The notes beneath the pieces were generated by a model. It did no database searches. It was not told where the DNA came from and worked only from the letters and a program-made list of their open reading frames with translations. Both the position numbers and the translations under genes were made by a program. Positions 5,903-53,653 of a stretch of DNA of 64,000 nt are shown here, one piece after another (position 1 is the first letter of the stretch; the number at the start of each line of letters is the position of its first letter). The DNA comes from Patescibacteria group bacterium (GTDB taxonomy: Bacteria; Patescibacteriota; Minisyncoccia; Phycocordibacterales; JBHPGB01): assembly GCA_042571085.1 (NCBI GenBank), contig JBHPGB010000002.1, forward strand, positions 6,796 to 70,795, read 5' to 3'.

Positions 5903-5966
5903 GACAGAAATCGCCCCCACATCATTCATAGGGGTTATATACAAATAAATATACCAGAATACTTAG

Positions 5967-6125
5967 AGCATGTCCAAAAATTCTAGACTGCTGCGAAATT
6001 GTGTTGCGAGCTGCGAATATCGGCTCAAAAAACTCACCGTAGCTACGGCTATGGCTCATTTTCCTCGCCGCATTCTCGCCTCGCAACCCAATCTCTCGCC
6101 ACGTCAATAGTTTTTGGACATGCTC
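5967..6125. repeat. long imperfect palindrome in the uvrA/ORF6205 divergent intergenic region, with perfect 15-bp terminal inverted repeats
   Basis: GAGCATGTCCAAAAA at 5967-5981 and TTTTTGGACATGCTC at 6111-6125. Inner arms partly complementary (TTGCGAGCTGCGAAT / ATTCTCGCCTCGCAA). Centre CCGTAGCTACGG. Confidence 0.6.
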
Positions 6126-6204
6126 TGCAATTACACAAACTCTTTGTTTTTTTGTAAATACGTGCTACCTTTGTGTTAGAAATGTTTTTAAAGAGGACAA
6201 AATC

Positions 6205-6558
6205 ATGGCAATTCCGCCCCAAATATACCCAGAGCTTATACCAGAACCCCTTTCAGAAAAACAAAAACTTGAGTTAGAAAATCTTATAAAGATTATTGAT
6301 AAAAAACTCGAGAAAGCAGACAGTCCTGATTTGGTACGAGTACGAATCTCAATGGAGTGCGAAATACCAGAATGCGCAGTATTATTTGGGGTTGGCCCTT
6401 TCTACATTAAGAAAGGCTGGTACGCAATACTCTTTGACACAGAACAGGCGAAGCTTTACGAGAGCCGTCTTGAGGGATTTTGGATTCTCGATTTTTACAA
6501 AAAATCACATCTTGTGTTTGGTACAAAAACATCCAACTGGGCAACCACACGCAAATAA
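6205..6558 (+). CDS. hypothetical protein (117 aa)
   Basis: AAGAGGA RBS. Followed by a perfect 13-bp-stem terminator at 6561-6600. Confidence 0.5.
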   Translation: MAIPPQIYPELIPEPLSEKQKLELENLIKIIDKKLEKADSPDLVRVRISMECEIPECAVLFGVGPFYIKKGWYAILFDTEQAKLYESRLEGFWILDFYKKSHLVFGTKTSNWATTRK

Positions 6559-6608
6559 AAAACCGGCTACATGTTGTACACATGTAGCCGGTATCTTTTT
6601 TGTTGAAA

Positions 6609-7070
6609 CTAATTTACTGAATCAGGCTTTTCAGGGAAATCACACCCGAGATGTTCGGAAAGATCTGCCGAATCAAACTCGGAAGACTGCATCTCTGCCG
6701 GCCCTTGTTCTTTTTCATCATCCTCATTCGAGTTTTCAGACTCAATGACTTTTTCTGAGCTTGCGAACATCTGCAGCAAATCATCTGTACTCATTGTTAT
6801 TGCTTCATTTTGTGCATAATATTCACAAAACTCTATTTGTAATTCATCATCACCGCTAAATAAATACATCATGATGCTCAACCGTGCATCAATTCCTTCA
6901 GAAAAATTTGATATTAATCTAAGATCTTTATATGGATACTTAGATTTTTCGCCGGTATCTTCAAGTGAGTTAAAGAGTTCCCCGTCACCAGAAAGCCTTG
7001 CCATATCATATATATCATCAACTAATATGGACATCAATTCAAATAAATATTCTTTCTTAAACTGTTTCAT
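6609..7070 (-). CDS. highly acidic hypothetical protein (153 aa, Asp/Glu-rich C-terminal tail), immediately downstream of uvrB on the same strand
   Basis: GAGGT RBS. Folded-looking N-terminal half, poly-acidic tail DDEKEQGPAEMQSSEFDSADLSE. Probably co-transcribed with uvrB. Confidence 0.5.
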   Translation of the reverse strand: MKQFKKEYLFELMSILVDDIYDMARLSGDGELFNSLEDTGEKSKYPYKDLRLISNFSEGIDARLSIMMYLFSGDDELQIEFCEYYAQNEAITMSTDDLLQMFASSEKVIESENSNEDDEKEQGPAEMQSSEFDSADLSEHLGCDFPEKPDSVN

Positions 7071-10901: not shown

Positions 10902-12620
10902 TTATTGAATATATTTATCTACATTAATATATTTCTTTATATTAACGACCGTCTTTCTCATTGAGGCATATATTGTTTTTGATCTAAGTTGAAAGTCTTT
11001 AGGAACTCTTTTTTGAGTGGATAATAGAAGTTCAAGCTCATCAAGATTTTTAGCGAGAATGTCTGAAATTTTTTGAATGTCTCTATTAATTACCACACGG
11101 TACGCATATTTTTTCTTCTCGTTTTCATTGTAATACCAATAGCTACCTCCACCACCTACAATAATAAGGAAAGCGAGCAGCATCAATATTTCCAGTAAAG
11201 TTAAATCAATAGGACCAGCCGACAAAATATTTTTTGCACCAACTCTCAAAGTAATTTCTTCTGTAGAGTAGCTGACAGCACCTCTATTATCACGTGATGT
11301 GAATATTAATTTATATCTACCTTTATCTAGACCATCGTCAATCGTAACTTCCCATTTCCCTGAAATATCAACTTCCGCAACACCTGAATAGACCTCTTCT
11401 TCCTTTTTTGAAATAAGATAATCAACAAATTCTCCTGCAATTCCTTTACCAGAAGCATGAAAAGTATCTTCTAATGTAATGTCATCTGTAATAAAATCAA
11501 TCGTTGGCATCTCTAAAGGAAGGATTTCAAATTCCAATTCATTATCTATATGATTACCAGCTTCATCAAATACATCAACTCGTATTGTGTGTTTTCCAGG
11601 TTTTTGAGGCTTTAATGTGATTGTGGTACTTGCCAATTCATAAGGATTTTGGCCGTCAACAGAAACCATGGAATGAGAATACCCGGAAAGACTATCGCTT
11701 CCAATCCAACTCATTTCAGGTGTTGGATTATCAGAAACCAGAGATGGTGTCTTTATATCAAAAGCAATTGGAGAAGTTACATCAATAGATATTTTATAAT
11801 GAGCTACAGCACCCCAACCTTTGTTATTCTTGAATTGAACATGTATATAATGAACACCCTCATCCAAAATTCCTAAATTCTTACCTGTAAACAATTCTTC
11901 CTCAGCTTCTTGAGGCTCTGTTTTTGGTTTATTGTTTACAGAAACAGCTATCTTAATAACATCATCAGGTACATCCCAGAACACAACTGTTTCTCCTTGA
12001 TACGTATACCATCGCTCCTGATCTGCATATAAAGGTATGCTGAGATCTGGTTTTATAGGTAATTCCTTAGAAATAACAGCTTCTCTTACTATTATTTCTG
12101 GTTGTTCAATAACTTGTGGTTTTGAAACCCCTTCCACTGGGACAGTCCCTTCGCCTATTGTAATACTAAGATTTTTAACAGTATTTAAAACATTTGTTCC
12201 TTTCCCGTCATTTGCTGTGACTATTGGCTTAGATATTCTTATTTCAGCCAATCCTGAATTAAGTGTTTTAAAATTGATTCTCACGATGCGAAGATCTTCA
12301 CCTTCCAAACCGCGCGTCGTGCCACCAATAAAACTTACTGTTCCATCCTCATTTGAAAACACTGGTTCTTCCACCCAGAAATCAAAAACTGAATTTACTC
12401 TATCAACACTCACAACCTCCAAAAGATTTGGTGGAAAAGATACTACAGACTGCGCTGCGTTTATATAATCTTCATCTGTATCAACTAAGATATCTACATA
12501 AAATTCTGTTTGTGTATTAACAGTATTTTTTTCAGATGAAAAATATAGAATTGCTGCTTCTGCTTGAGCAGCAGCAGACATAAATAAAGTAACAAAAATT
12601 ATTAAAAGTATTTTTTTCAT
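10902..12620 (-). CDS. secreted, C-terminally membrane-anchored surface protein with N-terminal cohesin-like domain
   Basis: Signal peptide MKKILLIIFVTLFMSAAAQA. Cohesin-like block (EFYVDILVDTDEDYINAAQSVVSFPPNLLEVVSVD...GTVSFIGG). C-terminal TM helix plus GGGGSYWYY. Confidence 0.55.
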   Translation of the reverse strand: MKKILLIIFVTLFMSAAAQAEAAILYFSSEKNTVNTQTEFYVDILVDTDEDYINAAQSVVSFPPNLLEVVSVDRVNSVFDFWVEEPVFSNEDGTVSFIGGTTRGLEGEDLRIVRINFKTLNSGLAEIRISKPIVTANDGKGTNVLNTVKNLSITIGEGTVPVEGVSKPQVIEQPEIIVREAVISKELPIKPDLSIPLYADQERWYTYQGETVVFWDVPDDVIKIAVSVNNKPKTEPQEAEEELFTGKNLGILDEGVHYIHVQFKNNKGWGAVAHYKISIDVTSPIAFDIKTPSLVSDNPTPEMSWIGSDSLSGYSHSMVSVDGQNPYELASTTITLKPQKPGKHTIRVDVFDEAGNHIDNELEFEILPLEMPTIDFITDDITLEDTFHASGKGIAGEFVDYLISKKEEEVYSGVAEVDISGKWEVTIDDGLDKGRYKLIFTSRDNRGAVSYSTEEITLRVGAKNILSAGPIDLTLLEILMLLAFLIIVGGGGSYWYYNENEKKKYAYRVVINRDIQKISDILAKNLDELELLLSTQKRVPKDFQLRSKTIYASMRKTVVNIKKYINVDKYIQ

Positions 12621-12622
12621 AT

Positions 12623-15346
12623 TTATATTTTAGACATTGATTTTAGAAAAATACTAAAATCGCTAATATTAATTATACCATTATTATCAAAATCAAGTGC
12701 ATTACGCAGTGGATTATTTTCGTCTCCCCATCTAAAAAGAAAGATACTCCAATCTGTAATATCAATTGCATCATCATCGTTCAAATCTGTATTTGCTGAT
12801 ACTTGTCCAGAAACTTTAAAAGTTATCGGATATGAATACGTACTTGTTATTTCGTTCCAAGTTTGTCTGACTTTTGCAAAATAAATACCCTCTTCAATTT
12901 CGGATGCGGGAATTTCAAATAAATATGAACCATCTGAACCAGCATCTGTTTCAAACTTATAAGTCCCATCCAAACTAAGCTCCACAACACTATTTGCAGC
13001 CGTATGACCAAACACAATCAAGTTTTCACTGAGATTTAAGTATTCCTTTTCAATACTTATTGTTGGTGACATGAGAATATTTTCAACAACAAGACTTCGC
13101 TCTGAATTAAAATCAACCCTGAAAGACATTATTCCGGTTTCGTGCTCATCTTTATCTACTGCTTTTAAAGTAATGAAATATTTACCTGTCAGAAGTGCCG
13201 TATAATCGATATAAAATTCTCCATTTTCTGTAATCCTATTTATGGCAATGGGGATATTTTGAAAAGAAGGATTGACATCATTTACCATTGAAACTAAAAT
13301 TTGGCTTCTAGGAAAAGCTTGCCCGGAAAATCTAATTTTTGTTGCAGCAGATCCGCCGCCGCCTTCTAGTACGGTTATAGATGGTCCTTCTAGTGTTGTT
13401 TCATTTGTAACATTGGAGAGTGCTGACTCATTAGGTGCCTCATCTGAAGTTTTCATTGCAAAATAATATGTCGTACCTGAATTCAAACTAGAAACGGTCA
13501 TTGATTCGCCAGTACCTGCAATAGACGGAGTCGGTTCTCCTGTGGCCTGTGTCGCACTACCCCAATTACCATCATTAATAGTTGCTGTGGAATATCTCAC
13601 GTCATATGTTGTCGCAGTGCCACTAGATCCATCGTCTCCTGGAGCAGTCCAAGACAAATCTATCGCGTAACTAGCTGGGTTAGAAGCAGCAAGATCGGAA
13701 ACAGCTGCTGGTGGTGTGGAATCTCCAGATGAGGTTGTGGTATCACTCGCTACATTTGAAAGCCCTGACTCATTGGGAACTTCATCAGAAGTCTTCATTG
13801 CAAAATAATATGTTGTGCCAGCGCTCAGACCTGTGACAGTCATTGATTCGGCTGTACTTGCAACAGACGGTGATGGTTCATCCGGAACTACAGGTGTAGC
13901 GGAAGCCCAGTTGCCATCATTAATAGTTGCTGTGGAATATCTAATATCATATGTAGTCGCTGTGCCACTAGATCCATCGTCTCCTGGAGCAGTCCAATCT
14001 AAATCAATAGTAGTATCTGTTGGAGATGATGCTGCTAAATCTGAAGTGGTTGATGGTGGAGTTGAATCTCCAGACACCCCTGTTGCAGCACTCGTAACAT
14101 TAGAAAGTCCGGATTCATTTGGTACTTCATCTGAGGTCTTCATTGCAAAGTAGTACGTAGTATCTGCACTTAGTCCAGTAACTGTCATTGATTCAGCAGT
14201 ACTAGCAACGGATGGTGATGGCTCATCTGGAACAACAGGAGTTGCTGAGGCCCAGTTGCCGTCGTTGATAGTTGCGGTTGAGTATCTAATATCATAAGTA
14301 GTGGCAGTACCTGTACTTCCATCATCTCCAGGGGCTGTCCAATCAAGATCTATAGTAGAAGTAGTCGGGCCAGAAGCTGTAAGATCAGAAGTGGTTGCCG
14401 GTGGAGTTGAATCACCAGCAGGACTTGTTGCAGCACTCGTCACATTAGAAAGCGCAGACTCGTTTGGAACCTCATCTGATGTTTTCATTGCAAAATAGTA
14501 TGTTGTGCCAGCACTCAGACCTGTGACAGTCATTGATTCGGCTGTACTTGCAACAGACGGTGATGGTTCATCCGGAACTACAGGAGTTGCTGAGGCCCAG
14601 TTGCCGTCGTTGATAGTTGCGGTTGAGTATCTAATATCATAAGTAGTGGCAGTACCTGTACTTCCATCATCTCCAGGGGCTGTCCAGTCTAGATCTATAG
14701 TCGTGCTTGTTGGACCAGAAGCAGTCAGATCAGAGGTTGTTGCTGGTGGAGTCGAGTCTGCCGGGGTGTAGGTGATAACTGTTTTTAATTGAGAAATCCT
14801 CACATCCTTACCTGCGCTTGTGTCAATAATACCAATCTCTATATCACTCCCACTTGCTTTAGTATGACTCACTGAAAAAGACTGCGTTGCTTCTGCATAA
14901 CTATTCCCTGTTGTAAGATCTGCTCCAGAACTTGTACAGGCACCATCAAAACAATAACGAGTCTGAAATGTACCACCATTTGAACCCTCTTTAAAATAAC
15001 AAGCAGTAACATCTATATTAGTAATGGATGCACCATCTGGAATACCTGATTCATCAATATCAAACGTTTGACTCACGTCAACACCGTTACTATATATGTA
15101 TGAAATATCTCCATCCGAATTAGCACATTCAGCGCCAGTGGTTTCATCAACTTCCAAATAACAATCAGCGGCATTACATGCTGTAGCACCGGTATTTAAC
15201 CAACTTGCACTGTCTTCTCCACCATCAGCGGACGGCATCAAAGAAGAGGTAACGTCTGCAGACACACTAACAACCATTATTGCGATCCAAGCAATAATAA
15301 AAGCGCCTAAAAAAATGGAGAATTTTTTGATTTCAAATTTAATCAT
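12623..15346 (-). CDS. large surface protein with 4 tandem fibronectin type III-like repeats and a C-terminal type-I dockerin module
   Basis: N-terminal signal/TM. Four roughly 115-aa near-identical repeats (TPPATTSDL...TTYYFAMKTSDEVPNES). C-terminal duplicated Ca-binding dockerin repeats DLNDDDAIDITDWSIFL and DFDNNGIINISDFSIFL. Confidence 0.7.
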   Translation of the reverse strand: MIKFEIKKFSIFLGAFIIAWIAIMVVSVSADVTSSLMPSADGGEDSASWLNTGATACNAADCYLEVDETTGAECANSDGDISYIYSNGVDVSQTFDIDESGIPDGASITNIDVTACYFKEGSNGGTFQTRYCFDGACTSSGADLTTGNSYAEATQSFSVSHTKASGSDIEIGIIDTSAGKDVRISQLKTVITYTPADSTPPATTSDLTASGPTSTTIDLDWTAPGDDGSTGTATTYDIRYSTATINDGNWASATPVVPDEPSPSVASTAESMTVTGLSAGTTYYFAMKTSDEVPNESALSNVTSAATSPAGDSTPPATTSDLTASGPTTSTIDLDWTAPGDDGSTGTATTYDIRYSTATINDGNWASATPVVPDEPSPSVASTAESMTVTGLSADTTYYFAMKTSDEVPNESGLSNVTSAATGVSGDSTPPSTTSDLAASSPTDTTIDLDWTAPGDDGSSGTATTYDIRYSTATINDGNWASATPVVPDEPSPSVASTAESMTVTGLSAGTTYYFAMKTSDEVPNESGLSNVASDTTTSSGDSTPPAAVSDLAASNPASYAIDLSWTAPGDDGSSGTATTYDVRYSTATINDGNWGSATQATGEPTPSIAGTGESMTVSSLNSGTTYYFAMKTSDEAPNESALSNVTNETTLEGPSITVLEGGGGSAATKIRFSGQAFPRSQILVSMVNDVNPSFQNIPIAINRITENGEFYIDYTALLTGKYFITLKAVDKDEHETGIMSFRVDFNSERSLVVENILMSPTISIEKEYLNLSENLIVFGHTAANSVVELSLDGTYKFETDAGSDGSYLFEIPASEIEEGIYFAKVRQTWNEITSTYSYPITFKVSGQVSANTDLNDDDAIDITDWSIFLFRWGDENNPLRNALDFDNNGIINISDFSIFLKSMSKI
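13390..14765. repeat. four tandem direct repeats of about 345 bp (FN3-repeat coding units)
   Basis: Repeat anchors TTCATTGCAAA(A/G)TA at about 13452, 13794, 14140 and 14485 (spacing 341-346 bp). Units 1-3 are nearly identical at nucleotide level. Confidence 0.8.
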
Positions 15347-15391: not shown

Positions 15392-15829
15392 TTATTTTAA
15401 AAAACTCTTTACCTTATCAATAATTTCAGCAACAGAATGTTTGGACTTAACAATATAATCATCAGCCCCCAAACTTAATCCTTTTTTAACATCATCATCA
15501 CTCCCAAGAGCAGTTATAATGATAACTGGAATATTTTTTGTATGGGAATCTTTTTTAATTTTTGTTAATATGTCAAAGCCGTGAACTTCAGGAAGCATAA
15601 GGTCCAATAAAATCAACTCCGGAAGCTCAGTCCTAACCATTCTTAATGCATCACCGCCAGAAAATACAGGCTTAACTGTAAACCCGGATTTTTCTAATTC
15701 ACCACTTATAACCTGAGACAAGGTTTTGTCATCTTCTATAAATAGAATTTTTTTACCTGATGTAATCGGCTCATTTATTTCGTCTATTTTATTTATTTCA
15801 TTTGTTTCGTTTACTTCTTCCATATTCAT
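15392..15829 (-). CDS. single-domain response regulator (REC only) with N-terminal EINE repeats
   Basis: CheY-like fold residues: acidic pocket EDD, phospho-acceptor D in ILLDLMLP, conserved K in YIVKS. No output domain. Confidence 0.75.
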   Translation of the reverse strand: MNMEEVNETNEINKIDEINEPITSGKKILFIEDDKTLSQVISGELEKSGFTVKPVFSGGDALRMVRTELPELILLDLMLPEVHGFDILTKIKKDSHTKNIPVIIITALGSDDDVKKGLSLGADDYIVKSKHSVAEIIDKVKSFLK

Positions 15830-15965
15830 TTAATTATACTAGAGTTTTTCATAAGTTCCCAGTATTATGCCGTGTATTATCCACACAAAACAAAAAGCAC
15901 TCTTGTGAAGTACTTTTTTAAAACACTATTGTAAACTTTAGATGTTTACTACGGTTTTGTGTATC

Positions 15966-16352
15966 TTATCTTTTGTGTATGTTATCAAAAAATTCTGTAA
16001 CCTTTTCTACAATTTCTGCTACTGCGTGTTGCGCCTTCACAATGTAATCATCCGCACCTAATTGAATTCCTTTTTTAATATCCTCATCACTACCGAGCAT
16101 GGTAATAATAATTACTGGAATCTCTTTTGTTTCGGGAGATTGTTTCAATTGCTGCAACACATCAAAACCATGTTTTTTGGGAAGTACTAGATCAAGTAGT
16201 ATTAAATCTGGTTTTTCTGACTTTATTATATCCCAAGCCTCTTCACCGTTGTATGCATTTGCTACCTCAAAACCAGCATCAGATAATTCCTCATAAACAA
16301 CTTTTGATAAAATTTTGTCGTCTTCAACCAAGACTATATTTCCTTTTTTCAT
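15966..16352 (-). CDS. single-domain response regulator (REC only)
   Basis: VLVEDD, LILLDLVLP, YIVKA motifs. 128 aa. Confidence 0.75.
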   Translation of the reverse strand: MKKGNIVLVEDDKILSKVVYEELSDAGFEVANAYNGEEAWDIIKSEKPDLILLDLVLPKKHGFDVLQQLKQSPETKEIPVIIITMLGSDEDIKKGIQLGADDYIVKAQHAVAEIVEKVTEFFDNIHKR

Positions 16353-16421
16353 AATAATTAATTTAATCGATAATTTGCTGTAATTATATACTGGACATTA
16401 TAACATGATTATCTGGATTTG

Positions 16422-18803
16422 TTATGCAAGTTTTTTTCCACCTTTTTTAGATACTGTAGATACTGATTTTATGGGCAATTCCACAAAGAATGTGGTCCCC
16501 TTATCTTCAACAGATTCAAACCATATTTTTCCACCAAGAAGATCGACGGCTTTTTTGGCTATGTACAAACCAAGACCAGTTCCTGATGTGTTTGTAAGTT
16601 TTGCGTTGTCACCCCTTGTAAATTTATCGAAAATGGTTTTCTGCGCGCTTATTGGAATACCTATACCAGTATCCTTAACAGTAAAAGTGAATGTTTTGTT
16701 ATCTTTTTTCTTTAGGACAATTTCTATCTTACCACCTTCGGGTGTATATTCAAGCGCATTTGAAATCAAAGATTGTATTATATTTCGCAAAGCACCCTTA
16801 TCTGTAAGTATTTCCAATGAATCTGGATGCTCGTCAAAAGTTATAGTTAAGCTTTTCTTTGTTGTCATTGGTACTATTTCATTCAAATATCTTTTCAAAA
16901 GATCAACAAGTTCTATCGGTTGGACTTGTACCTCTACAGCACCACCCTCAATACGAGATACATTAAGCAATATATCAACAAGTTCGGAAAGCTCTTCGGT
17001 GCTTGAGTGAATATCTTCAAGATATTCTTTTCCTTTTTTTGAAACCTTTTCTTTTTTCAAGAAATGTTCTATTACCCACCTGATACCGGTGATTGGTGTT
17101 CTCAACTGATGAGATGCTGTCGAAATGAAGTCCGTTTCCATTTTGTCAATTTCCCTTTCTCTAGTTACATCTCGAAAAACAACTACACAACCAAGAATTT
17201 TTCCATCCAGATCTTTTATCGGAGCAGCGCTATCATCAACAGGTATTTCCACTCCATCTTTATTGATTATTAAAGCGTCCTTTTCTATCTTTGTCTTTTC
17301 CCCCATTTGCATTGCTTTTGCAATAAAATCCTCAACTGGGGTTTTTTCAACCTCTGATATAAATTTAAGATACTTATCGTAATGCCTACCAGTAACTTCA
17401 CTAGCTGTAAAGCCAGTTAATTCTTCAGCAACGGCATTAAACAGCATAATCTTTCCATCTCCATCACAAGCCATAAGCGCATCACCAATGGAAGCCAAGA
17501 TTGCCTCATCTTTACTTTTTTCTTCTGCCAATTCCTGATTCTTTATATTCACATCTTCAGCGATATTTAACATTGCCTCTTTGACCCCTTCCAGATCTGT
17601 TATTTTTGCGGCCAACTCTTCTGTTCTCTTTTCAACCTTTTGCTCCAAACCAGCAGCGTATTCCTGTACCTTATCTTGAGATTGTCTCAGATCAGCTGAC
17701 ATTTTATCAAACGCCTTACCTAATTGAGAGACGTCATCACCCTCTTTATCATCGGCATTAGTGATTGATCCTACATCTTCTTGAAGCTCTTTAATAGGGC
17801 GGGCGATTATTTTCGCAAATAAAATCGCTGCAACAATAATAAAGAAGGCAAATAATGCGATCATAAATCCAAGCAGGAATCTCATACTAGCAATTGGAGA
17901 AAAAGCATCTTCCGTCTTAATTTCGGCCAACAACTTCCATCCTTCCTCTAGACACATAGATGCACCAATCACTTCTTCTGCTTTATGATTTGTGTAGATA
18001 TCAATAACCTCTACAGCATGAGAACATTGTTGTACCGGGTATGTGTTGATCACAAAATCATTTTCATCTTCTGAAATAAATGGATTAATAAATGCTATAT
18101 TGTCTTCGTTTACTATATATATTTTTAAAATTCCTGATAATTCTGAAAAGGTTTCTTCGAATATACCACTTCTGCTAAAATTAAATTGATTTGAAAAAAC
18201 ATTTCGAATATCATCAATATCAAATACATTTGCAATAACACCAATAATTTCTCTAGTGTTATCATCTTCAATAGGGGCAGTAACAACAAAAATATCTTTA
18301 ATTCCAAAATGTACATGCCTTTTGAGTTCTGTTGCAAATGAAATAGATTCCTTGCCATTAATAAAATAGGACTCATTGGATTCATTTTTACCAATTTCAC
18401 TATTGTCCGTTGAAGAAATAATTACACCATTCAAATCCATAATAAAAATGCCTTTGATGTTTTCATCCAATGGTTTTTTATTTTTTATTAAATGGTTGTT
18501 GAGATTTATTATTGAATTTTCTGTGTCATCACCAGATAAAATTTGTGTAAGACTATTTTTAATGAATTCGTCTAATGCAAAATCAGCTGTCCTGCCTTTG
18601 GTCGATTCTAAGTACATTTCAAGCTGGTGCTCTTGTGCCTCAGCCAAAAGCACGATCTTGTTGAAGATTTCAGTTTTTAAATTATCTCTAGTTTCTCGTA
18701 TACTTAAAACACCAAAAATTATTAGTGGTAATAATCCAACTAATAAAAAAGTAACCAGTAATTTTATATTAAAACTCCTTATGTGTGGTTTTTTTATTTT
18801 CAT
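16422..18803 (-). CDS. membrane sensor histidine kinase (TM / extracellular sensor / HAMP / PAS / HisKA / HATPase_c)
   Basis: Two TM helices. H-box ASHQLRTPITGIRW. PAS-like segment. G-box GTGLGLYIAKK. Confidence 0.8.
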   Translation of the reverse strand: MKIKKPHIRSFNIKLLVTFLLVGLLPLIIFGVLSIRETRDNLKTEIFNKIVLLAEAQEHQLEMYLESTKGRTADFALDEFIKNSLTQILSGDDTENSIINLNNHLIKNKKPLDENIKGIFIMDLNGVIISSTDNSEIGKNESNESYFINGKESISFATELKRHVHFGIKDIFVVTAPIEDDNTREIIGVIANVFDIDDIRNVFSNQFNFSRSGIFEETFSELSGILKIYIVNEDNIAFINPFISEDENDFVINTYPVQQCSHAVEVIDIYTNHKAEEVIGASMCLEEGWKLLAEIKTEDAFSPIASMRFLLGFMIALFAFFIIVAAILFAKIIARPIKELQEDVGSITNADDKEGDDVSQLGKAFDKMSADLRQSQDKVQEYAAGLEQKVEKRTEELAAKITDLEGVKEAMLNIAEDVNIKNQELAEEKSKDEAILASIGDALMACDGDGKIMLFNAVAEELTGFTASEVTGRHYDKYLKFISEVEKTPVEDFIAKAMQMGEKTKIEKDALIINKDGVEIPVDDSAAPIKDLDGKILGCVVVFRDVTREREIDKMETDFISTASHQLRTPITGIRWVIEHFLKKEKVSKKGKEYLEDIHSSTEELSELVDILLNVSRIEGGAVEVQVQPIELVDLLKRYLNEIVPMTTKKSLTITFDEHPDSLEILTDKGALRNIIQSLISNALEYTPEGGKIEIVLKKKDNKTFTFTVKDTGIGIPISAQKTIFDKFTRGDNAKLTNTSGTGLGLYIAKKAVDLLGGKIWFESVEDKGTTFFVELPIKSVSTVSKKGGKKLA

Positions 18804-18822
18804 AAAAAAATAACTAAACTTA

Positions 18823-19539
18823 TTATATACTGAACAGTAACTTAATACCTATTAAAAACAGAGCAATTAACACAACTTTTCTAAATGTTTCTGTAGGTAT
18901 TTTCTGTACTATTTTTTTGCCAAAAAGTGTCCCGACAAATGCGATTATTATCAAAATTGGTATGTAATAATAATGCATCGTATCCAACACTATACCGTCC
19001 ATTAAGTATACTGGGATTCTGGTCATATCAATCACCAATGCAATCATTGCTGATGTTGCTATATATATTTCTTTTGGTAATGAAAAAGCATTCAAAAAAA
19101 GTGAGCGTATTGCACCTCCGGTGCCAATAAGCCCGGCAAGAAAACCTGATGCCAATCCACCGCTCACAGCAACACAATTTGTTGGCTTAAATTTAACAAC
19201 ATTTACAAGAAAGGAATACGCAACAAAGGCAACAAGAAATAACCCGAAAATAACCTGTATTGTTTCTGTATTTAGTGTTGTTATAAGCTTAGCTCCAATA
19301 AAAGCCGTCAAAATACTAGGAATTCCAAATTTCAAAAATATTTTCCAATCAATCTTTTTAAAAATAGCAATCTTGGATAAATTTCCAAATAAATGAAAAA
19401 AAGCAACTAAAACAATCGCTGTTTTTATATCCAAAATCAATAAGCTAAATGGAATTAAAATTGTCGACGTGCCGAAACCAGCCACAGCACTAATTGTGGT
19501 GGCTATAAAAGCTATTATAAAAAAGAAAATGTGCTCCAT
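18823..19539 (-). CDS. TauE/SafE (DUF81) family membrane permease
   Basis: Polytopic membrane protein with internal duplication and the GxGGG motifs typical of sulfite-exporter TauE/SafE. Confidence 0.6.
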   Translation of the reverse strand: MEHIFFFIIAFIATTISAVAGFGTSTILIPFSLLILDIKTAIVLVAFFHLFGNLSKIAIFKKIDWKIFLKFGIPSILTAFIGAKLITTLNTETIQVIFGLFLVAFVAYSFLVNVVKFKPTNCVAVSGGLASGFLAGLIGTGGAIRSLFLNAFSLPKEIYIATSAMIALVIDMTRIPVYLMDGIVLDTMHYYYIPILIIIAFVGTLFGKKIVQKIPTETFRKVVLIALFLIGIKLLFSI

Positions 19540-19591
19540 AAAAAATATTGGTGCGAGGTATAAAGAGAGATTTTATTTTTATATATTCTGT

Positions 19592-19972
19592 CTATTTAAT
19601 CTTGCTTTCAACCATTTTTATAAGATCTTCAACAGACCACTTTGTTTTAGTAAGATAATCACTTGTTCCATATTCAACAGCTTTAGCTATTCTTTCAGAA
19701 TCACTAAGATTTGTAAGGATTATTACCTCAGCATTTTTACCCCATTCATCTTCCCGCAACTCTTTAAGCATGTCCATCCCATGCATCACAGGCATAACGA
19801 TATCAAGCAAAATAACATCTGGATGTTCAGCAAAAGCAACATCTAAACCTTCTCGTCCATTTTCAGCTTTAAATACATCGAAGCCATGGTCACTGAATTC
19901 ATTATCAAGTATTCGAAGTAACTTTTCATCATCTTCAACTATTAAAATCTTCTTTTTATCTTCTGTAGTCAT
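19592..19972 (-). CDS. single-domain response regulator (REC only, CheY-like)
   Basis: ILIVEDDE, VILLDIVMP, YLTKT motifs. 126 aa. Confidence 0.75.
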   Translation of the reverse strand: MTTEDKKKILIVEDDEKLLRILDNEFSDHGFDVFKAENGREGLDVAFAEHPDVILLDIVMPVMHGMDMLKELREDEWGKNAEVIILTNLSDSERIAKAVEYGTSDYLTKTKWSVEDLIKMVESKIK

Positions 19973-20116
19973 AAATAAATATTACGGATTAATTATTAAG
20001 TTTTTATTTGATTGCATTTATTATATCAAACAAATACGTAATAAAAAATAGTGCCTGTGTGTAACACAGGCGCTATTATGATGAAAGGGTTGGAAAACCC
20101 TTGAGTGTGTTGGAAA

Positions 20117-20896
20117 TCATTTTTTTGTTTCCTCGTAATCAAGCCAATACGAGAGACGTGAGCGTAAGCGCAGGACCGCCTGACTATGGATCTGACACGC
20201 CCGTGACTCACTGACCCCTAACACCTGACCGATCTCTCTCAAATTAAGTTCTTCATCGTAACGTAGAGTTATCGCCAAGTGTTCTCGTTCTGGTAGAGAT
20301 TTTATGGCATGATCAAGATCTTTTTTAAGCTGCTTTTTCTGCAAGTTTGCAAACGGTTCAGACATAGTATCACAAGCAACGGATGTTCTTGAAACCTTAT
20401 TATTGCGGTTGTCATTACTGTCATCATGATTATCTTCAAACAAAGCACCGTCTAAACTAAAGACCCGGCAGCTTGATACATCACTTAATACAGCATGATA
20501 ATCCTTAATCCTCATATCCAGAGCTCTGGCAACTTCCATATCACTAGCCTCGCACCCCTGCTCATTTTCAATCTCACGTCTAGCCTCCGAAATCATGCGT
20601 GCCTTGCGATATACCGATCGTGGCGTCCAGTCACTGCGCCGAATCTCATCCAGCATAGCGCCGCGAATACGGATGCCTGCATAGGTCCCAAAGCTGGCAC
20701 CCTGGCTAGGATCATAGTTTCGACTTGCCTCAAGCAAACCGAGCATTCCATTCTGGATCATATCATCCGCCTGCACATTTGGCGGCAATCGATTCATCAG
20801 ATGATAGGCAATGCGCTTCACCAACGGCGCATGCCGAGTCACCAATTCATCAAAACTAGGGGGTTCCAGTGCAACAACACTATTTATTTTACTCAT
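20117..20896 (-). CDS. fliA: RNA polymerase sigma factor, FliA/sigma-28 family; GC about 48-50% versus about 35% in flanking genes
   Basis: Translation closely resembles gammaproteobacterial FliA as I recall it (APLVKRIAYHL, DMIQNGMLGLLEA, GASFGTYAGIRIRGAMLDEIRR, YDEELNLREIGQVLGVSESRACQIHSQAVLRLRSRL). Host-like AGGGAG RBS and AT-rich flanks with terminators on both sides. Confidence 0.8.
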   Translation of the reverse strand: MSKINSVVALEPPSFDELVTRHAPLVKRIAYHLMNRLPPNVQADDMIQNGMLGLLEASRNYDPSQGASFGTYAGIRIRGAMLDEIRRSDWTPRSVYRKARMISEARREIENEQGCEASDMEVARALDMRIKDYHAVLSDVSSCRVFSLDGALFEDNHDDSNDNRNNKVSRTSVACDTMSEPFANLQKKQLKKDLDHAIKSLPEREHLAITLRYDEELNLREIGQVLGVSESRACQIHSQAVLRLRSRLSYWLDYEETKK

Positions 20897-21011
20897 GATA
20901 TTCTCCCTTTCTTTTGTGTACCTATTTCAAATATATGTAAAACAGTCTCATGTGTCAAGGAAAAAATCCCACCAGAATTTTGGTGGGATTTTTCTATAAA
21001 TAACTCAAGCT

Positions 21012-21755
21012 CTAGTTAAAAAGTTTTACGAACCAACCAAATAGACTGAATTTGTCTTCATTCTCTTCTATAAATGCCTCTGCATTAGCCTTTACTTCAT
21101 TAAGTGCTTCGATTTCTGCCCCGAGCTCTGTTTTTAATTCTTCAACAACCACGGATTCTAAAACTCTTGTTAAGCGATTGATGTGATTCTCTGTGGTAAC
21201 AATCTCACTACGCAAACCACCTAAATTTTTATAATCAGCACCAATCAAAAATGTCTTAAGCTTCCCTCTTTTCCCAATCTCTTCCATAGAATTTGCAATA
21301 CGTTCTTTTGAATCATTTTGCTCTTGTGCAACTATTCGCACTTCTTCACCAATAACACCAGCTTTTTCAGCCGTATCCTTTAATTCCTTAACGAGTTCAG
21401 CGACGGCACTGCGGTGCTCGTCACCTCTTTTTTTATACTCCTTACCTTTCCCACGGCCCATTCCTTCATCTTCACCCTCCTCAATGTCAGTAGCATCTTC
21501 AACGTACTCCTCATCAGTACCATCATTTGCACTATAATCAGTAGCATTATCAACAGCGTCGTTATATGCATCATCGTCGGCAGCATTAACGTCGCCAAGA
21601 TCAGCATCAGCATCGTCTATGTTACTGGTAGTCATAACCCCAACAGCATCATTATCATCATCAGCAAATGCTGGAATTGCGGCAATAGAAAAAGTTGCCA
21701 CAAAAGCAAAAACTATAAAAGGTATTATATATGTGGATAAATTGTATGTCTTCAT
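21012..21755 (-). CDS. secreted hypothetical protein with acidic low-complexity region
   Basis: Signal peptide. D/A/N-rich low-complexity segment. Coiled-coil C-terminal half. Confidence 0.5.
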   Translation of the reverse strand: MKTYNLSTYIIPFIVFAFVATFSIAAIPAFADDDNDAVGVMTTSNIDDADADLGDVNAADDDAYNDAVDNATDYSANDGTDEEYVEDATDIEEGEDEGMGRGKGKEYKKRGDEHRSAVAELVKELKDTAEKAGVIGEEVRIVAQEQNDSKERIANSMEEIGKRGKLKTFLIGADYKNLGGLRSEIVTTENHINRLTRVLESVVVEELKTELGAEIEALNEVKANAEAFIEENEDKFSLFGWFVKLFN

Positions 21756-21922
21756 AATTATTATAATAGTTATTAATTAATAAGTAGACCAATAGAAAGC
21801 CTTTATTGATTTAATTGTACACTCACATTTAAAATAATGCCATAACAACTTATCTACAGTTACGATTGGCAATAAAAAAAGCCCGCCAGAGTGGCGGGCT
21901 TATCTCTACGACGAGGTGTTTG

Positions 21923-22429
21923 TTACTCCTTTTTTACAAGCCGCAAATCCGGCTTCTTTTGTGAAAGGCTATGTAAATGATGCAACTCTTTAGATTGTTC
22001 ATTAACAACATCTCTAAAATCAAAAAACTTTTCCGACATATTGCTAAACATTTTTCCTGCTGATGCTAATGGGTGTTTATATCTAGATGGAACACTATCT
22101 GCATGAGCTTGCAATACTCGCAATTTTAACTGATATGCGGGTTTTGCACTAACTATTAATCTATCTGCGAGTTCACGCCTCATCTGATCAACACCATCAG
22201 CATCTATCTCTGCTAATCTTTTTATATAGTCAAAATTTGACCACAAGGCATTGTCAATTTTTGCTTGAATTTCTCTCGAGCCTTGTTGACCCCGATCAAA
22301 TGAATTTGCTATACACTCCCTTATGCATACCGCGGCTTTTTGTTCAAATGCAATGGGATCCTTATGGATTAATTCAAGTAATGTTTCGAAGTCTTTTTCA
22401 AATAACTTATCTTCAAATACGGGCATCAT
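21923..22429 (-). CDS. hypothetical protein (168 aa)
   Basis: ORF with terminator hairpin (AAAAAAAGCCCGCCAGAGTGGCGGGCT) just downstream. No domain recognised. Confidence 0.4.
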   Translation of the reverse strand: MMPVFEDKLFEKDFETLLELIHKDPIAFEQKAAVCIRECIANSFDRGQQGSREIQAKIDNALWSNFDYIKRLAEIDADGVDQMRRELADRLIVSAKPAYQLKLRVLQAHADSVPSRYKHPLASAGKMFSNMSEKFFDFRDVVNEQSKELHHLHSLSQKKPDLRLVKKE

Positions 22430-23166: not shown

Positions 23167-23281
23167 GGCTGCCAGATAGGGACTCGCCTCTCACAAATCA
23201 AAGATTTGTTCCGAAACGCACTATTTTTATAATCGCTTCGCTCTTTAAAAATAGGCGCCTACGGTTCGAGTCCTATATCTG
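23167..23281. repeat. tRNA-associated element copy 1: conserved core of about 76 nt flanked by an inverted and a direct copy of the tRNA-Gln 3' end
   Basis: GGCTGCCAGATAGGGACTCG (reverse complement of the tRNA-Gln T-arm/acceptor 3' strand), then core CCTCTCACAAATCAAAGATTTGTTCCGAAACGCACTATTTTTATA...AAAAATAGGCGCCTAC, then GGTTCGAGTCCTATATCTG. Same core at 40405-40522. Confidence 0.75.
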
Positions 23282-23332
23282 AAAAACACGCAATAAAACA
23301 GACCTCACAAAAGAGGTCTGTTTTATTGCGAG

Positions 23333-23403
23333 CTGCCAGATAGGGACTCGAACCCCAATAGACGGCACCAAAAGCCGTAGTCCTACCATTAGACGATCTG
23401 GCA
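23333..23403 (-). tRNA. tRNA-Gln (anticodon TTG)
   Basis: Manual fold: acceptor TGCCAGA/TCTGGCA, D-stem GTCT/GGAC, anticodon stem ACGGC/GCCGT with loop TTTTGGT, T-arm TGGGG-TTCGAGT-CCCTA. CCA not encoded. Confidence 0.75.
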
Positions 23404-23475: not shown

Positions 23476-23505
23476 CGTAGTCCTACCATTAGACGATCTG
23501 GCAAT
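23476..23505 (-). pseudogene. exact duplicate of the 5' 28 nt of tRNA-Gln (5'-half pseudo-copy) about 70 nt upstream of the tRNA
   Basis: CGTAGTCCTACCATTAGACGATCTGGCAAT is identical to the 5' part of the tRNA gene at 23376-23405. Confidence 0.7.
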
Positions 23506-31548: not shown

Positions 31549-32217
31549 CTACAACAACACATCCTTATCCATTCTGTTATTAAGAACTCGCCACAACCCG
31601 ATACGATCTGAACTACCAACACGTTGTTCATTACCGAGTCTTTTAATAAGCCAAAGGCTTTCGCCATTAAAATTATAGACTGGCTGCAAATCCCTACGCT
31701 GGGATACTGGTTTAATCACACCTGTGAGATTATCTAGTACCAACGGCTCAGCATGACTGTGTTCATAATATATAAGAACCATATGTGCCACATTCAGCTT
31801 CAAAGATTTTACATAGGTTATGCGAAGTTTCTCAACAGACACACCCATCTCAAGCAAAGTAAAATATTTGGCGATAGAGTAATCTTCACAATCCGCTTGC
31901 CAAACAAAGAGCACCTCGGTCGGTGTTGCCCAATAATCTTCCCTTCCCCAAATTTCATAATCTGATCCGTATTCAGCTTTGTTGAAGAAATCATTAACTA
32001 ACTCAAGTTTTTCATGTTCGGACTTGTCTCTATTGTTTACAATAAGTCCGTGCAATTCTGTAATTCGATTTTTTACAGCTATGTCATGATCTTTGGAAAT
32101 AGCCGTATGTGAAAAAAGAATGACACATATAAAACATGAGAGAATTAGATGGGATGTTTTTTTAAAAAGATCTGTTTCTGTGCGAGATACGCACAGAAAA
32201 TTAATGCGATATTTCAT
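31549..32217 (-). CDS. bacterial transglutaminase-like cysteine peptidase (BTLCP) family protein (start at MKYRINF after a GGAGGA RBS)
   Basis: Signal peptide. Cys motif QADCEDYSIAKY, His in NVAHMVLIYYEH, Asp in LDN, matching the BTLCP Cys-His-Asp arrangement. Confidence 0.6.
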   Translation of the reverse strand: MKYRINFLCVSRTETDLFKKTSHLILSCFICVILFSHTAISKDHDIAVKNRITELHGLIVNNRDKSEHEKLELVNDFFNKAEYGSDYEIWGREDYWATPTEVLFVWQADCEDYSIAKYFTLLEMGVSVEKLRITYVKSLKLNVAHMVLIYYEHSHAEPLVLDNLTGVIKPVSQRRDLQPVYNFNGESLWLIKRLGNEQRVGSSDRIGLWRVLNNRMDKDVLL

Positions 32218-32435
32218 GTCCGTATCCTCCTTAAAAACTGGATGTTCCAAAATTAAATACTGGTTGTAAGTATAACTTAAAATTTAAAAAAGTCAAATAC
32301 TTCCATACGTACATAATACTTGTGAAAAACACCCTAAAAAAGTTTCTTACATTAAACAAAGCCGCGCTAAAGCGCGGCTTTTTGTGGAAATTGGTATCCA
32401 CTCAGAGGCACGGTCGTAAAAGACCTCATTCACAC

Positions 32436-38443: not shown

Positions 38444-38956
38444 TTATATTTTACGTGAATCATACGCCCAATGCAAAAGGGCTTGGCGCTGACGTGGGCG
38501 GCACACCAAGTCTTTTGCATTACAATTATTCCTTACCGCACTTGCGTGTCTACGAAACCCTTTCCAGCGTTTTATTTGTCGCTCATCATCCTCATGTCGC
38601 CTACCCATATAGTACCTACAGTACCACTGAAACCATCCTCGCGGATCATCTTTGTGAATCCAACCTTTTTTACGCCACACAGAAAGCGGTTGACTCGCAT
38701 TTATTTTGAAATAATTTATATTTTTGTCGCGCATTTCAGGCGAGAGCTTTGCTTTAGCAAACCAGCTTGCAGGAAACTCTTTTTTACAATCTGTCATATA
38801 CTTCCCACCAAAAACACCGAGCTCCAGCATCTCTTTGGGCGTAAGCTCTGGTTTGAAATCTGGTGCAAAATTCTTTCCCACCGGTTGACTGAGCATATAT
38901 GTATACCCTTTCTGCATCTTATCCCGCACAGTAACTTTTTTCACTCTCTTTTTCAT
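38444..38956 (-). CDS. hypothetical basic protein (170 aa)
   Basis: ORF with conserved-looking Trp/Tyr-rich block WFQWYCRYYMGRR. No confident family assignment. Confidence 0.45.
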   Translation of the reverse strand: MKKRVKKVTVRDKMQKGYTYMLSQPVGKNFAPDFKPELTPKEMLELGVFGGKYMTDCKKEFPASWFAKAKLSPEMRDKNINYFKINASQPLSVWRKKGWIHKDDPRGWFQWYCRYYMGRRHEDDERQIKRWKGFRRHASAVRNNCNAKDLVCRPRQRQALLHWAYDSRKI

Positions 38957-40404: not shown

Positions 40405-40522
40405 GTGCGCCGAGTAGGATTTGCCTCTCACAAATCAAAGATTTGTTCCGAAACGCACTATTTTTATAGTCGTTAAACACTCCTTAAAAATAGGCGCCTA
40501 CGGTTCAAACCCTACTCGGCAT
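40405..40522. repeat. tRNA-associated element copy 2: same conserved core flanked by an inverted and a direct copy of the tRNA-Tyr 3' end
   Basis: GTGCGCCGAGTAGGATTTG (reverse complement of the tRNA-Tyr 3' end), core identical to the 23187-23262 core over its first 46 nt and last 16 nt, then GGTTCAAACCCTACTCGGCAT. Confidence 0.75.
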
Positions 40523-47300: not shown

Positions 47301-47792
47301 ATGAAGGGCATGAATTTTGATTTTATAACAACAGATATACTTGTGTACACACTTATCAGCCTACTCATAATCACGGTAATTTTAATCCTGCTGATTATTC
47401 GTCTAGAAATTAAATTGCGTGGAATACTGCGCGGTAAAAATGCGAAGACTCTTGAAGACACAATCAACTCTTTAGGTAACGAAATAAAAAACCTACACGT
47501 ATCAAGAGAAGAAATCGAGACTTACTTAAAAAGTGCGGAAAAGCGAATCAAAAGAAGCACGCAAGGGATAGCTACTGTGCGGTTCAATCCATTCAAAGGT
47601 ACTGGTTCTGGAGGCAATCAGAGTTTCGCCACTGCTTTTGTAGACGAACACGGAGACGGTGTTGTGATTTCAAGCCTGTATAGTCGTGACCGCATGAGTG
47701 TATATGCAAAACCGCTCAATAATCACAAGTCAGAGTTTGAACTAACGACGGAAGAAAAGGAGGCTGTCAAAAAAGCAAGTTTAAACAATTGA
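47301..47792 (+). CDS. membrane-anchored hypothetical protein (resembles the DUF4446 family)
   Basis: N-terminal TM, coiled coil, then VRFNPFKGTGSGGNQSFATAFVDEHGDGVVISSLYSRD block. Confidence 0.4.
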   Translation: MKGMNFDFITTDILVYTLISLLIITVILILLIIRLEIKLRGILRGKNAKTLEDTINSLGNEIKNLHVSREEIETYLKSAEKRIKRSTQGIATVRFNPFKGTGSGGNQSFATAFVDEHGDGVVISSLYSRDRMSVYAKPLNNHKSEFELTTEEKEAVKKASLNN

Positions 47793-50200: not shown

Positions 50201-50692
50201 ATGCACGGAAAAGAGAAAAAAAGAAGATGGTCAGAAGATGACTTAAAAAATGCTGTGTTGAATTCTACAAGTATTCGACAAGTTCTGGGTAAGCTTAATT
50301 TAAAACAAGCTGGTGGAAATTATGTGCAGGTCAAATATTATATTAAAAAATATAATATTGATATAAAACATTTTACTGGACAAGGCTGGAACAAGGGAAT
50401 GCGCGGCATTGGTAAACCTAGAATTTCTTTAAAAGAAATTCTAACAAAAAATAGTTCTTTTCAAAGTTATAAATTAAAAAAAAGACTTTTTAAAGAAGGT
50501 CTAAAAAAACCACAATGTGAAGAGTGTGGCTGGGCAAAAAAATCTAAAGACGGAAGAATTCCTTTAGAGTTAGATCATGTGAATGGTACCCGAACAGATA
50601 ATCGATTAGAAAATTTACGAGTACTATGCCCAAACTGCCATAGTCTAAAACCTACACATCGTGGATTGAACAAAAAAAAGGGCCAGTGGTGA
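50201..50692 (+). CDS. free-standing HNH endonuclease (homing-endonuclease-like), embedded in the tRNA cluster; the stop overlaps the 5' end of tRNA-Leu(TAA)
   Basis: HNH motif CEECGW...LELDHVNGTRTDNRLENLRVLCPNCH. Basic N-terminal DNA-binding-like region. Confidence 0.7.
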   Translation: MHGKEKKRRWSEDDLKNAVLNSTSIRQVLGKLNLKQAGGNYVQVKYYIKKYNIDIKHFTGQGWNKGMRGIGKPRISLKEILTKNSSFQSYKLKKRLFKEGLKKPQCEECGWAKKSKDGRIPLELDHVNGTRTDNRLENLRVLCPNCHSLKPTHRGLNKKKGQW

Positions 50693-53349: not shown

Positions 53350-53649
53350 CTAAACAGGGTTTGTGAATCCAAAAGTATTGGCTAAGAATGTAACTATGCC
53401 CATAACGGAAATCATAATAAACATACCAAAGAGCCCCCACATGATATGCTTCTTGCCTTGCTCACGCGCATTTTCATCATTTGCTTGAAACAAGAAGCGT
53501 GCGATTCCCCAAAGGAATAATACAAGGGCAAGTGCAAACAAAAATCCAATAAGAGGATTTATTATGTTGTCTACAACCCTATCAATAAGTGGCTCAAGCC
53601 CAGACTCTACTACCGCAGCATGCACTGTTTGTACATTTAGAACATTCAT
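53350..53649 (-). CDS. VirB2/TrbC-like small membrane protein, paralogue 1 (start at MNVLNV; the ORF-track start at 53697 would overlap the upstream paralogue)
   Basis: Two hydrophobic helices separated by a conserved charged loop ANDENAREQGKKH. Confidence 0.45.
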   Translation of the reverse strand: MNVLNVQTVHAAVVESGLEPLIDRVVDNIINPLIGFLFALALVLFLWGIARFLFQANDENAREQGKKHIMWGLFGMFIMISVMGIVTFLANTFGFTNPV

Positions 53650-53653
53650 AGAT

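Follow-up and report, generated by a model that had tools for sequence, protein, structure and literature searches.

A gene for a flagellar-type sigma factor, fliA (sigma-28), lies in a 64,000-nucleotide stretch of Patescibacteria DNA (contig JBHPGB010000002.1 of assembly GCA_042571085.1), which we refer to in full as the window. We consider, with a probability of about 0.7, that it encodes a domesticated orphan sigma-28 factor which forms a transcription unit of its own and serves a small number of genes unrelated to flagella at other places in the genome. Its horizontal acquisition from Gammaproteobacteria is well supported by sequence comparison. Patescibacteria have very small genomes with few regulators and lost flagellar genes early, and the gene shows that cross-phylum transfer can extend their transcription machinery. 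An original prediction made from the window alone had described a horizontally acquired FliA gene at the head of a locus of receiver (REC) proteins, a sensor kinase and surface adhesins, together forming a repurposed sigma-28 regulon.

Identity and conservation of the sigma factor

The product of the gene matched the Pfam domains Sigma70_r2, Sigma70_r3 and Sigma70_r4, and scored 279.3 bits against the NCBIfam FliA model NF005413 (cut-off 201) and 261.7 bits against the FliA/WhiG model TIGR02479 (cut-off 189.6). The presence of regions 2, 3 and 4 without region 1.1, together with scores above the FliA cut-offs, places the protein in the FliA subfamily. Scores fell below the NCBIfam equivalog models for WhiG (208 bits, cut-off 343) and for the Chlamydia-type factor (139.5 bits, cut-off 378), and the Bacillus-type sigma-28 equivalog was likewise not reached. 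When PDB was searched, FliA matches ranked above WhiG-type and SigA matches: a 254-amino acid FliA (9wsf) gave 243 bits and Escherichia coli FliA 181, with the WhiG-type 6pfv (161 bits) and Aquifex FliA (99 bits) lower in the ranking. The earlier description of a FliA-like sigma factor is borne out, as are the open reading frames (ORFs) listed at that time, all of which were found on the minus strand, and the gene is predicted to encode a true FliA/sigma-28 of the gammaproteobacterial FliA subfamily.

Conservation was assessed using 130 alignment columns that are unchanged in 119 gammaproteobacterial FliAs. The window protein retains 113 of these columns, the orthologue of a related Patescibacteria contig described below (L083) 125, and the solved FliA 9wsf 110, while agreement between the window protein and the consensus at variable columns is limited to 12 of 40 positions. 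Regions 2.4/3.0 and 4.2, which are responsible for promoter recognition, are essentially unchanged, and the segments YAGIRIRGAMLDEIRRSDWTPRSV and LREIGQVLGVSESR(A/V)CQIHSQA are identical or near-identical to the consensus of the 119 proteins. Because these regions are preserved, the protein should read canonical TAAA-N15-GCCGATAA-like promoters. Such predicted GCCGATAA-type recognition provides a testable handle on a “flagellar” sigma factor in a flagellum-less cell. The sole structural novelty is a 14-amino acid insert rich in N and D in the linker between regions 3 and 4, the most variable linker, which is present in the window protein and in none of its relatives.

The gene could be a non-functional passenger drifting neutrally after its transfer, as might be suspected from the lack of target promoters in our scans and from a window copy that is long-branched and carries a low-complexity insert. 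However, an uninterrupted ORF is found in each of three lineages, whose copies have diverged to 60-74% identity, invariant columns were kept at a much higher rate than variable ones, and the promoter, ribosome-binding site and terminator of fliA are conserved. This combination of retained invariant columns, changed variable columns and conserved signals points to purifying selection rather than to a decaying passenger, a possibility we regard as very improbable.

Gammaproteobacterial origin

Relatives of the window FliA were searched among 5.8 billion proteins. A single entry is identical, and its annotation gives FliA of a Patescibacteria group bacterium. The 119 matches ranked after it share 60-68% identity, and all those with names are gammaproteobacterial, including Sedimenticola, Thiodiazotropha, a Solemya gill symbiont, Chromatiales and Polarisedimenticolaceae. 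In the donor-type loci L002 and L089, fliA is part of a flagellar and chemotaxis cluster of the order fliL...flhA-flhF-flhG-fliA-cheY-cheZ-cheA-cheB-motAB. By comparison, Pfam scans of the 55 ORFs of the window (64 kb) and the gene calls in 9 kb beyond it revealed no flagellar, motor or chemotaxis genes, nor did 19 kb of L083, in keeping with the earlier remark that none were in sight. Flagellar biosynthesis genes are reported to have been lost on the stem of the Candidate Phyla Radiation (bioRxiv 10.1101/2020.07.15.205187). The nearest relatives, the donor-type loci and this loss of flagellar genes together support horizontal acquisition well, and the gammaproteobacterial origin proposed by the original prediction stands. 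Our literature search found no paper on FliA in Patescibacteria.

A phylogeny of the sigma factor had been proposed as a check, and it gave a divided result. The FliAs of L083 and of a third lineage (L084) were united in 295 of 300 bootstraps and nest inside one unnamed gammaproteobacterial subclade, with which they share 82-83% identity. The window FliA is a long branch (0.35) that the protein tree does not place firmly.

The composition of the gene also sets it apart. It has 46.2% GC and 43.1% GC at third codon positions (GC3), compared with means of 37.3% and 29.1% for the 55 window genes, among which it ranks first in GC and GC3 and last in synonymous-codon fit (absolute z of about 3 for each). 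A comparison of codon usage and GC3 with the host, another check that had been proposed, therefore identifies fliA as the strongest compositional outlier of the 55 genes. Flanking DNA has 32% and 29% GC, confirming the AT-rich flanks noted earlier. The previously given value of 48-50% GC was right in marking an outlier and too high for the whole gene, since blocks of 48-52% GC are confined to the 5' half and the 3' end. The closest donor-type fliA (in L089) has 47.5% GC, about the same as the window gene, and composition consequently carries little information on the age of the transfer.

A probable single insertion inherited by several lineages

Two genes lie directly 5' of fliA, one encoding a coiled-coil protein (p247) and one a DUF3135-domain protein (Table 1). 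The window population is also represented by a second assembly (GCA_042577165.1), which has an identical junction of DUF3135, p247, fliA and the receiver gene REC1. A remote DUF3135 relative (P0122) led to the L083 contig of a Patescibacteria metagenome-assembled genome (MAG; GCA_042568055.1), where the gene order is dus, dnaX, tRNA-Gln, DUF3135, p249, sigma factor, REC, dCache-PAS kinase, REC, REC and a fibronectin type III (FN3) protein. The closest full-length p247 homologue led to the third lineage, L084, with DUF3135, p258 and fliA; the same three genes are carried by L092, a JGI metagenome sequence from the same population as L084. Orthologous junctions of these further lineages were drawn from NCBI, ENA and JGI data. 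A metagenome scan for more carriers using the conserved promoter block of fliA recovered L092 only, and more distant p247 homologues were found in unrelated contexts with no sigma factor alongside.

DNA on the 5' side of fliA can be aligned in the window, L083, L084 and L092. On the 3' side, window and L083 align through a homologous terminator and then the start of REC1, while in L084 a convergent gene rather than REC1 follows fliA. The conserved core therefore consists of DUF3135, a p247-like gene and fliA, and the block of two-component and adhesin genes adjoins it in two of three lineages. Homologous 5' and 3' junctions are hard to explain other than by a single old insertion followed by vertical inheritance, and they indicate that fliA was inserted once, long ago, and was passed on vertically in at least three lineages. 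The label “horizontally acquired-looking”, if taken to mean a recent or unique transfer, does not agree with these junctions. No true empty site was recovered. In GTDB representatives, the shared synteny ends at dnaX and tRNA-Gln.

Pairwise distances between the FliA proteins would fit a near-star divergence with an approximately twofold faster window lineage. There is a slight residual probability that the fliA of the window was replaced at its original site.

The presence of the same junctions in a second assembly and of orthologous ones in two further lineages also bears on a technical explanation, namely that a gammaproteobacterial fragment was misjoined during assembly or binning. The abrupt change in GC and codon usage, limited to the fliA ORF, is what such an error could produce. 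Yet the gene is located in the middle of a contig between AT-rich flanks that carry host signals, and it has only 60-68% identity to any gammaproteobacterial sequence in the proteins searched. We consider an artefact extremely improbable, and the earlier view of an integrated gene rather than a chimera is upheld.

Transcription unit and search for sigma-28 promoters

The fliA gene has a sigma-70-type promoter, a ribosome-binding site and an intrinsic terminator (Table 1). The promoter block CTTGACAC-N2-G-N4-T-N-TTTTACATATATT is kept in L083, L084 and L092; GGAGA is found at the position of the ribosome-binding site in L083 and L084; and the terminator hairpin of L083 is homologous to that of the window, with compensatory changes. 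The host-type ribosome-binding site that had been noted before is thus present. From these predicted signals, fliA is a monocistronic unit with its own promoter and terminator. The proposal that it heads the locus finds no support in these signals, and in L084 REC1 is absent downstream of it.

Alignment of intergenic regions between the window and L083 revealed conserved sigma-70-type elements upstream of DUF3135, p247, fliA, REC2 and REC3, and no conserved GCCGATAA-like element in these aligned regions. A terminator precedes three of the four promoters of DUF3135, p247, REC2 and REC3. Upstream of REC2 there are conserved -10-like blocks, and upstream of REC3 a conserved terminator and a TATAAT promoter.

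We scanned the window, L083, L093, L084 and L092, about 95 kb of Patescibacteria DNA, for TAAA-N14-16-GCCGATAA and also for core CCGATA sites; the numbers of sites were those expected by chance, and no site stood in promoter position. No TAAA-N15-GCCGATAA site with up to one mismatch was present in this DNA. With up to two mismatches the window contained 24 sites, compared with 23 expected; none of them was in promoter position near pilin or adhesin genes, and no site in promoter position was found in L083, L093, L084 or L092. The only intergenic GCCGATAA, at 49968 on the plus strand before tRNA-Cys, lacks a -35 element. As a positive control, the two donor-type loci, L002 and L089, each gave TCAA/TTAA-N16-GCCGATAA about 100 nucleotides ahead of fliA, which shows that the scan works and that the donor-type sigma-28 site was not carried over.

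These results are relevant to the idea that the acquired sigma factor directly controls the REC, kinase and adhesin genes next to it, possibly together with pilin genes, for surface attachment. Such a regulon would agree with the position of fliA next to the REC-kinase-REC-REC-FN3 block in two of three lineages, with the surface proteins encoded in the locus and with five VirB2-like pilin genes at 53350-55333. However, a terminator separates fliA from REC1, the neighbouring genes are preceded by conserved sigma-70-type elements rather than by a GCCGATAA-like block, and a scan that detects the sites of donor-type loci detects none in promoter position near pilins or adhesins. A convergent gene follows fliA in L084. 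Co-orientation is uninformative because every gene between 34 and 27986 is on the minus strand; the observation that the downstream genes share the strand of fliA was correct, and in 28 kb with all genes on one strand it has no weight. We regard a regulon over the locus as quite improbable, since nothing beyond adjacency in two of the three lineages speaks for it, and the sigma-28 promoters expected upstream of REC, adhesin and pilin genes did not appear above chance or in promoter position.

Proposed history and points against it

We propose that the donor was a gammaproteobacterium of Sedimenticolaceae/Chromatiales type and the recipient a Parcubacteria/Paceibacteria-like lineage. The fliA ORF alone would have been taken from a flhA-flhF-flhG-fliA-cheY operon and would have landed once, downstream of tRNA-Gln, between the native p247 gene and a native REC gene. 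There it may have acquired a host sigma-70-type promoter, ribosome-binding site and terminator, or found them already in place, after which vertical inheritance and purifying selection would have maintained it in at least three lineages. In the present-day cell, the housekeeping sigma factor would transcribe fliA as a single-gene unit. The FliA protein would bind host core RNA polymerase, and its targets are probably a small non-flagellar set in other parts of the genome rather than the two-component and adhesin genes beside it. Our data bear directly on the identity and origin of the gene, its single insertion, its separate transcription signals, the purifying selection on it and the lack of sigma-28 sites in the locus. 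That the protein works with the host polymerase, whether and where a regulon exists and how the factor is controlled are what we infer from sequence.

Several points weigh against this history of a single acquisition and continued function. A clade of all three Patescibacteria FliAs and residues derived in common were both considered as signs of one acquisition and rejected, since the three-copy clade appeared in only 53 of 300 bootstraps and the three proteins share no derived residues at conserved columns. With the window FliA unclustered, the claim of a single acquisition rests on synteny, on junction homology and on an assumed faster rate of change in the window lineage. Sequences of the window population from its two assemblies are 100% identical and may not be fully independent. 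No target promoter was found in the approximately 95 kb scanned, so that activity of the sigma factor in its host is deduced from conservation only. Neither the 55 ORFs of the window and the gene calls in 9 kb beyond it nor the genes of L083 include a FlgM, and no other anti-sigma factor was seen, so that the model does not account for control of the factor. Finally, given the usual size of Patescibacteria genomes, our scans reached only some 10% of one such genome, and flagellar genes elsewhere keep a formal probability.

DUF3135, p247 and possible control of the sigma factor

L083 and L084 each have a p247 orthologue immediately 5' of fliA, with 54% and 59% identity, respectively. The family of its C-terminal domain is widespread in Patescibacteria, which identifies p247 as a native protein. 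The nearest relative of the window DUF3135 protein is its L083 orthologue, and its other named relatives are gammaproteobacterial; DUF3135 genes of Gammaproteobacteria occur in non-flagellar contexts. As a candidate anti-sigma factor, DUF3135 gave no match in a profile search against PDB. Its AlphaFold2 model is all-helical with a predicted local distance difference test score of 75.6, and with a best Foldseek E-value of 1.8 there was no fold match.

We further observed that a DUF3135 gene accompanies fliA in each of these Patescibacteria (21923-22429 in the window, 10001-10705 in L083 and 18-398 in L092). The protein evolves very fast, with about 30% identity between the window and L083 where dnaX has 90%, and its lengths of 126, 168 and 234 amino acids arise through internal duplication.

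One conceivable form of control is post-translational, with the REC proteins and the dCache-PAS kinase acting on FliA by a partner switch or in an anti-sigma-like manner, in place of FlgM and with no link at the promoter level. Dedicated partners such as FlgM are known for factors of the sigma-28 family (PMC5655016). The adjacency of fliA and REC1 in the window and L083, the 80% conservation of REC1 and the lack of a detectable FlgM in the locus would be in line with such an arrangement, which nevertheless has adjacency as its only basis, and REC1 is not beside fliA in L084. To our knowledge, REC-only proteins are common in these bacteria, and the three present here are paralogues of one another. 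We consider this form of control unlikely.

A more far-reaching proposal is that the sigma factor came from the sulfur-oxidizer-type gammaproteobacterial host on which these episymbiotic Patescibacteria live, and that, in place of FlgM, DUF3135 or the REC proteins fed by the dCache-PAS kinase provide a new anti-sigma or partner-switch control. This seems unlikely to us. If it were true, a host-derived sigma factor would give a minimal-genome cell that lacks flagella an extra transcription programme, the host lineage would be identified and a new mode of sigma-28 regulation would be at hand. More generally, a donor clade resembling Sedimenticolaceae/Chromatiales may point to an ecological partner of these uncultured bacteria.

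Comparison with known sigma-28 systems

Orphan sigma-28 factors are also known in Chlamydia and Streptomyces, where Chlamydia sigma-28 and Streptomyces WhiG are sigma-28-family factors with non-flagellar regulons. The window protein resembles them as a FliA/WhiG-family factor that probably serves a programme other than motility. Unlike the window gene, they are ancient residents of their lineages, and the window protein scores far below their cut-offs. FliAs of the Sedimenticola, Thiodiazotropha and Pseudomonas type belong to the same family, with regions 2, 3 and 4 and near-identical DNA-recognition segments. The donor-type genes are embedded in a flagellar cluster and have a sigma-28-type site about 100 nucleotides upstream, whereas the window gene stands alone behind a sigma-70-type promoter, has no flagellar genes in its region and carries the 14-amino acid insert.

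Legionella oakridgensis has no flagellar regulon and has kept functional FliA and FlgM (PMC5655016). This case is similar in that sigma-28 is retained without a flagellar regulon and different in that it is a relic of flagellar loss that includes FlgM, in contrast to a cross-phylum gain with no FlgM seen here. Since an orphan sigma-28 is already known in L. oakridgensis (PMC5655016), the effect of our findings on existing knowledge is modest. What is new is an orphan sigma-28 factor gained by cross-phylum transfer, apparently without FlgM.

Neighbouring genes

Features of the fliA region are listed in Table 1.

Table 1. Features in and around the fliA locus of the window, with identity to their counterparts on the L083 contig.
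Feature	Coordinates	Strand	Identity to L083	Basis or remark
fliA (sigma-28), 259 amino acids	20117..20896	minus	63%	NCBIfam FliA match, gammaproteobacterial relatives, GC/GC3 outlier
fliA promoter, sigma-70 type, TTGACA-17-TATATT	20930..20958	minus		11/12 consensus positions
fliA ribosome-binding site AGGGAG, 6 nt ahead of ATG	20903..20908	minus		sequence reading
fliA intrinsic terminator	20053..20071	minus		8-bp stem, then T-run
p247, secreted or anchored acidic coiled-coil protein	21012..21755	minus	54%	conserved neighbour 5' of fliA
p247 terminator	20961-20989			
DUF3135-domain protein, 168 amino acids	21923..22429	minus	~30%	third triad member; Pfam PF11333, 75.5 bits
Terminator after DUF3135 gene	21879-21901			
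REC1, stand-alone receiver	19592..19972	minus	80%	Pfam Response_reg, 89.8 bits; GC3 22.8%
TauE/SafE-family permease	18823..19539	minus		Pfam TauE, 124 bits
Sensor histidine kinase	16422..18803	minus	68%	Pfam dCache_1, weak HAMP, PAS, HisKA, HATPase_c
REC2, stand-alone receiver	15966..16352	minus	90%	Pfam Response_reg, 93.8 bits
REC3, stand-alone receiver	15392..15829	minus	66%	Pfam Response_reg, 82.4 bits
Surface protein, four FN3 domains and dockerin-like C-terminus	12623..15346	minus	79%	Pfam fn3 x4
572-amino acid surface protein, cohesin-like N-terminus and Big_13	10902..12620	minus		Big_13, 45.8 bits
tRNA-Gln(ttg)	23332..23403	minus		boundary between conserved synteny and lineage-specific block with fliA
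dus			82%	
dnaX			90%	

The three REC proteins are single receivers with the acidic pocket, Thr and Lys of CheY as judged by eye, and they had been called CheY-like. That description holds for their single-domain form and not for orthology. REC1 is 41% identical to REC2, REC2 is 56% identical to REC3, and REC1 shares only 32% with the CheY encoded after fliA in Sedimenticola. Their best NCBIfam matches are the receiver domains of PhoB, PleD and AtoC; no CheY model of NCBIfam reached its cut-off for any of the three, and no CheA, CheW, CheZ or methyl-accepting chemotaxis protein gene was found in the window scans. These comparisons identify the three REC proteins as native paralogues and not CheY. 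A cheY gene transferred together with fliA was considered and rejected: cheY follows fliA in donor-type loci, yet REC1 is nearer to the local REC paralogues.

The kinase of L083 has the same architecture as that of the window, while no TauE gene is present between REC1 and the kinase in L083, so that the permease is found in the window genome only. The dockerin- and cohesin-like matches of the two surface proteins are below thresholds (Dockerin_1 16.4 bits, cut-off 22.9; Cohesin 21.0 bits, cut-off 24.1), near full-length and in adjacent genes.

The pilin genes mentioned above are five tandem VirB2/TrbC-like paralogues of the T4SS_pilin family (107-134 amino acids); a gene for a solute-binding protein lies just upstream of them and has the same orientation. 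A transglutaminase-like cysteine protease of BTLCP/LapG type is encoded at 31549-32250 inside a conserved housekeeping block. The BTLCP/LapG family is known for adhesin release in Proteobacteria.

Genomic setting and other observations

Housekeeping genes in the window include ddl, uvrABC, tgt, dnaX, serS, topA, relA/spoT, parB, clpB, infB, gyrA, rpsA and pth, in addition to a gene for a MazF toxin, and the 9 kb past the right window end contain housekeeping genes as well. The organism is of Parcubacteria/Paceibacteria type. The window dnaX is at most 61% identical to that of any GTDB representative, the best matches being Paceibacterota, Parcubacteria and Nomurabacteria MAGs. The order parB...topA-dprA-serS-p281-dus-dnaX-tRNA-Gln is shared with Paceibacterota relatives, which have no counterparts of the genes downstream of tRNA-Gln.

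At this boundary, tRNA-Gln has an exact copy of part of itself on either side, the 5' 30 nucleotides at 23476-23505 and the 3' 19 nucleotides at 23168-23186. The fragments suggest scars of past integration or excision where synteny ends. Integration scars around fliA itself were looked for and discarded as an explanation, with no tRNA-Gln fragment beyond fliA and no integrase or transposase in the window scans. In L083, a 281-amino acid ORF (5945-6790; 47% GC, no Pfam match) separates dnaX from tRNA-Gln, a place occupied in the window by tRNA fragments only, which is further evidence of an insertion hotspot.

An 88-bp direct repeat with 90% identity is present at 23180-23267 and 40417-40506, just downstream of the tRNAs for Gln and Tyr. 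The copy at 23180-23267 contains a T-arm-like sequence, and the repeat may be tRNA-derived or a small mobile element. An HNH endonuclease gene (50201-50692) is located within a cluster of four tRNAs (Cys, Leu, Lys, Leu), and reaches with its 3' end into the beginning of tRNA-Leu(taa).

Two genes follow fliA as compositional outliers. A 170-amino acid ORF without a Pfam match (38444-38956), beside TspO, has a GC3 of 40.9%, and a DUF4446 gene (47301-47792) has the second-worst codon fit in the window. These two genes may likewise be of foreign origin.

The most GC-rich stretch of the window (50-56%) is a 1.26-kb gap at 60819-62080 with no called gene and no ORF longer than 64 amino acids. It folds much better than shuffled sequences on both strands, with z-scores of -4.4 on the plus strand and -12 on the minus strand, and there was no Rfam match. 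A candidate non-coding RNA of about 600 nucleotides on the plus strand has a promoter TTGACA-16-TAAGAT (61136-61163) and two tandem terminators (about 61733-61815). On the minus strand, 60988-61090 contains GGGUGAAGUCGUA...GGCUCGGAUCACCUCCUUUC, a degenerate copy of the 16S rRNA 3' end together with its anti-Shine-Dalgarno sequence; the remainder of a 16S gene is missing. Read on the plus strand, this segment is enclosed by a promoter (60879-60906) and a terminator (61072-61098), and the resulting transcript of about 170 nucleotides would complement the 16S 3' end.

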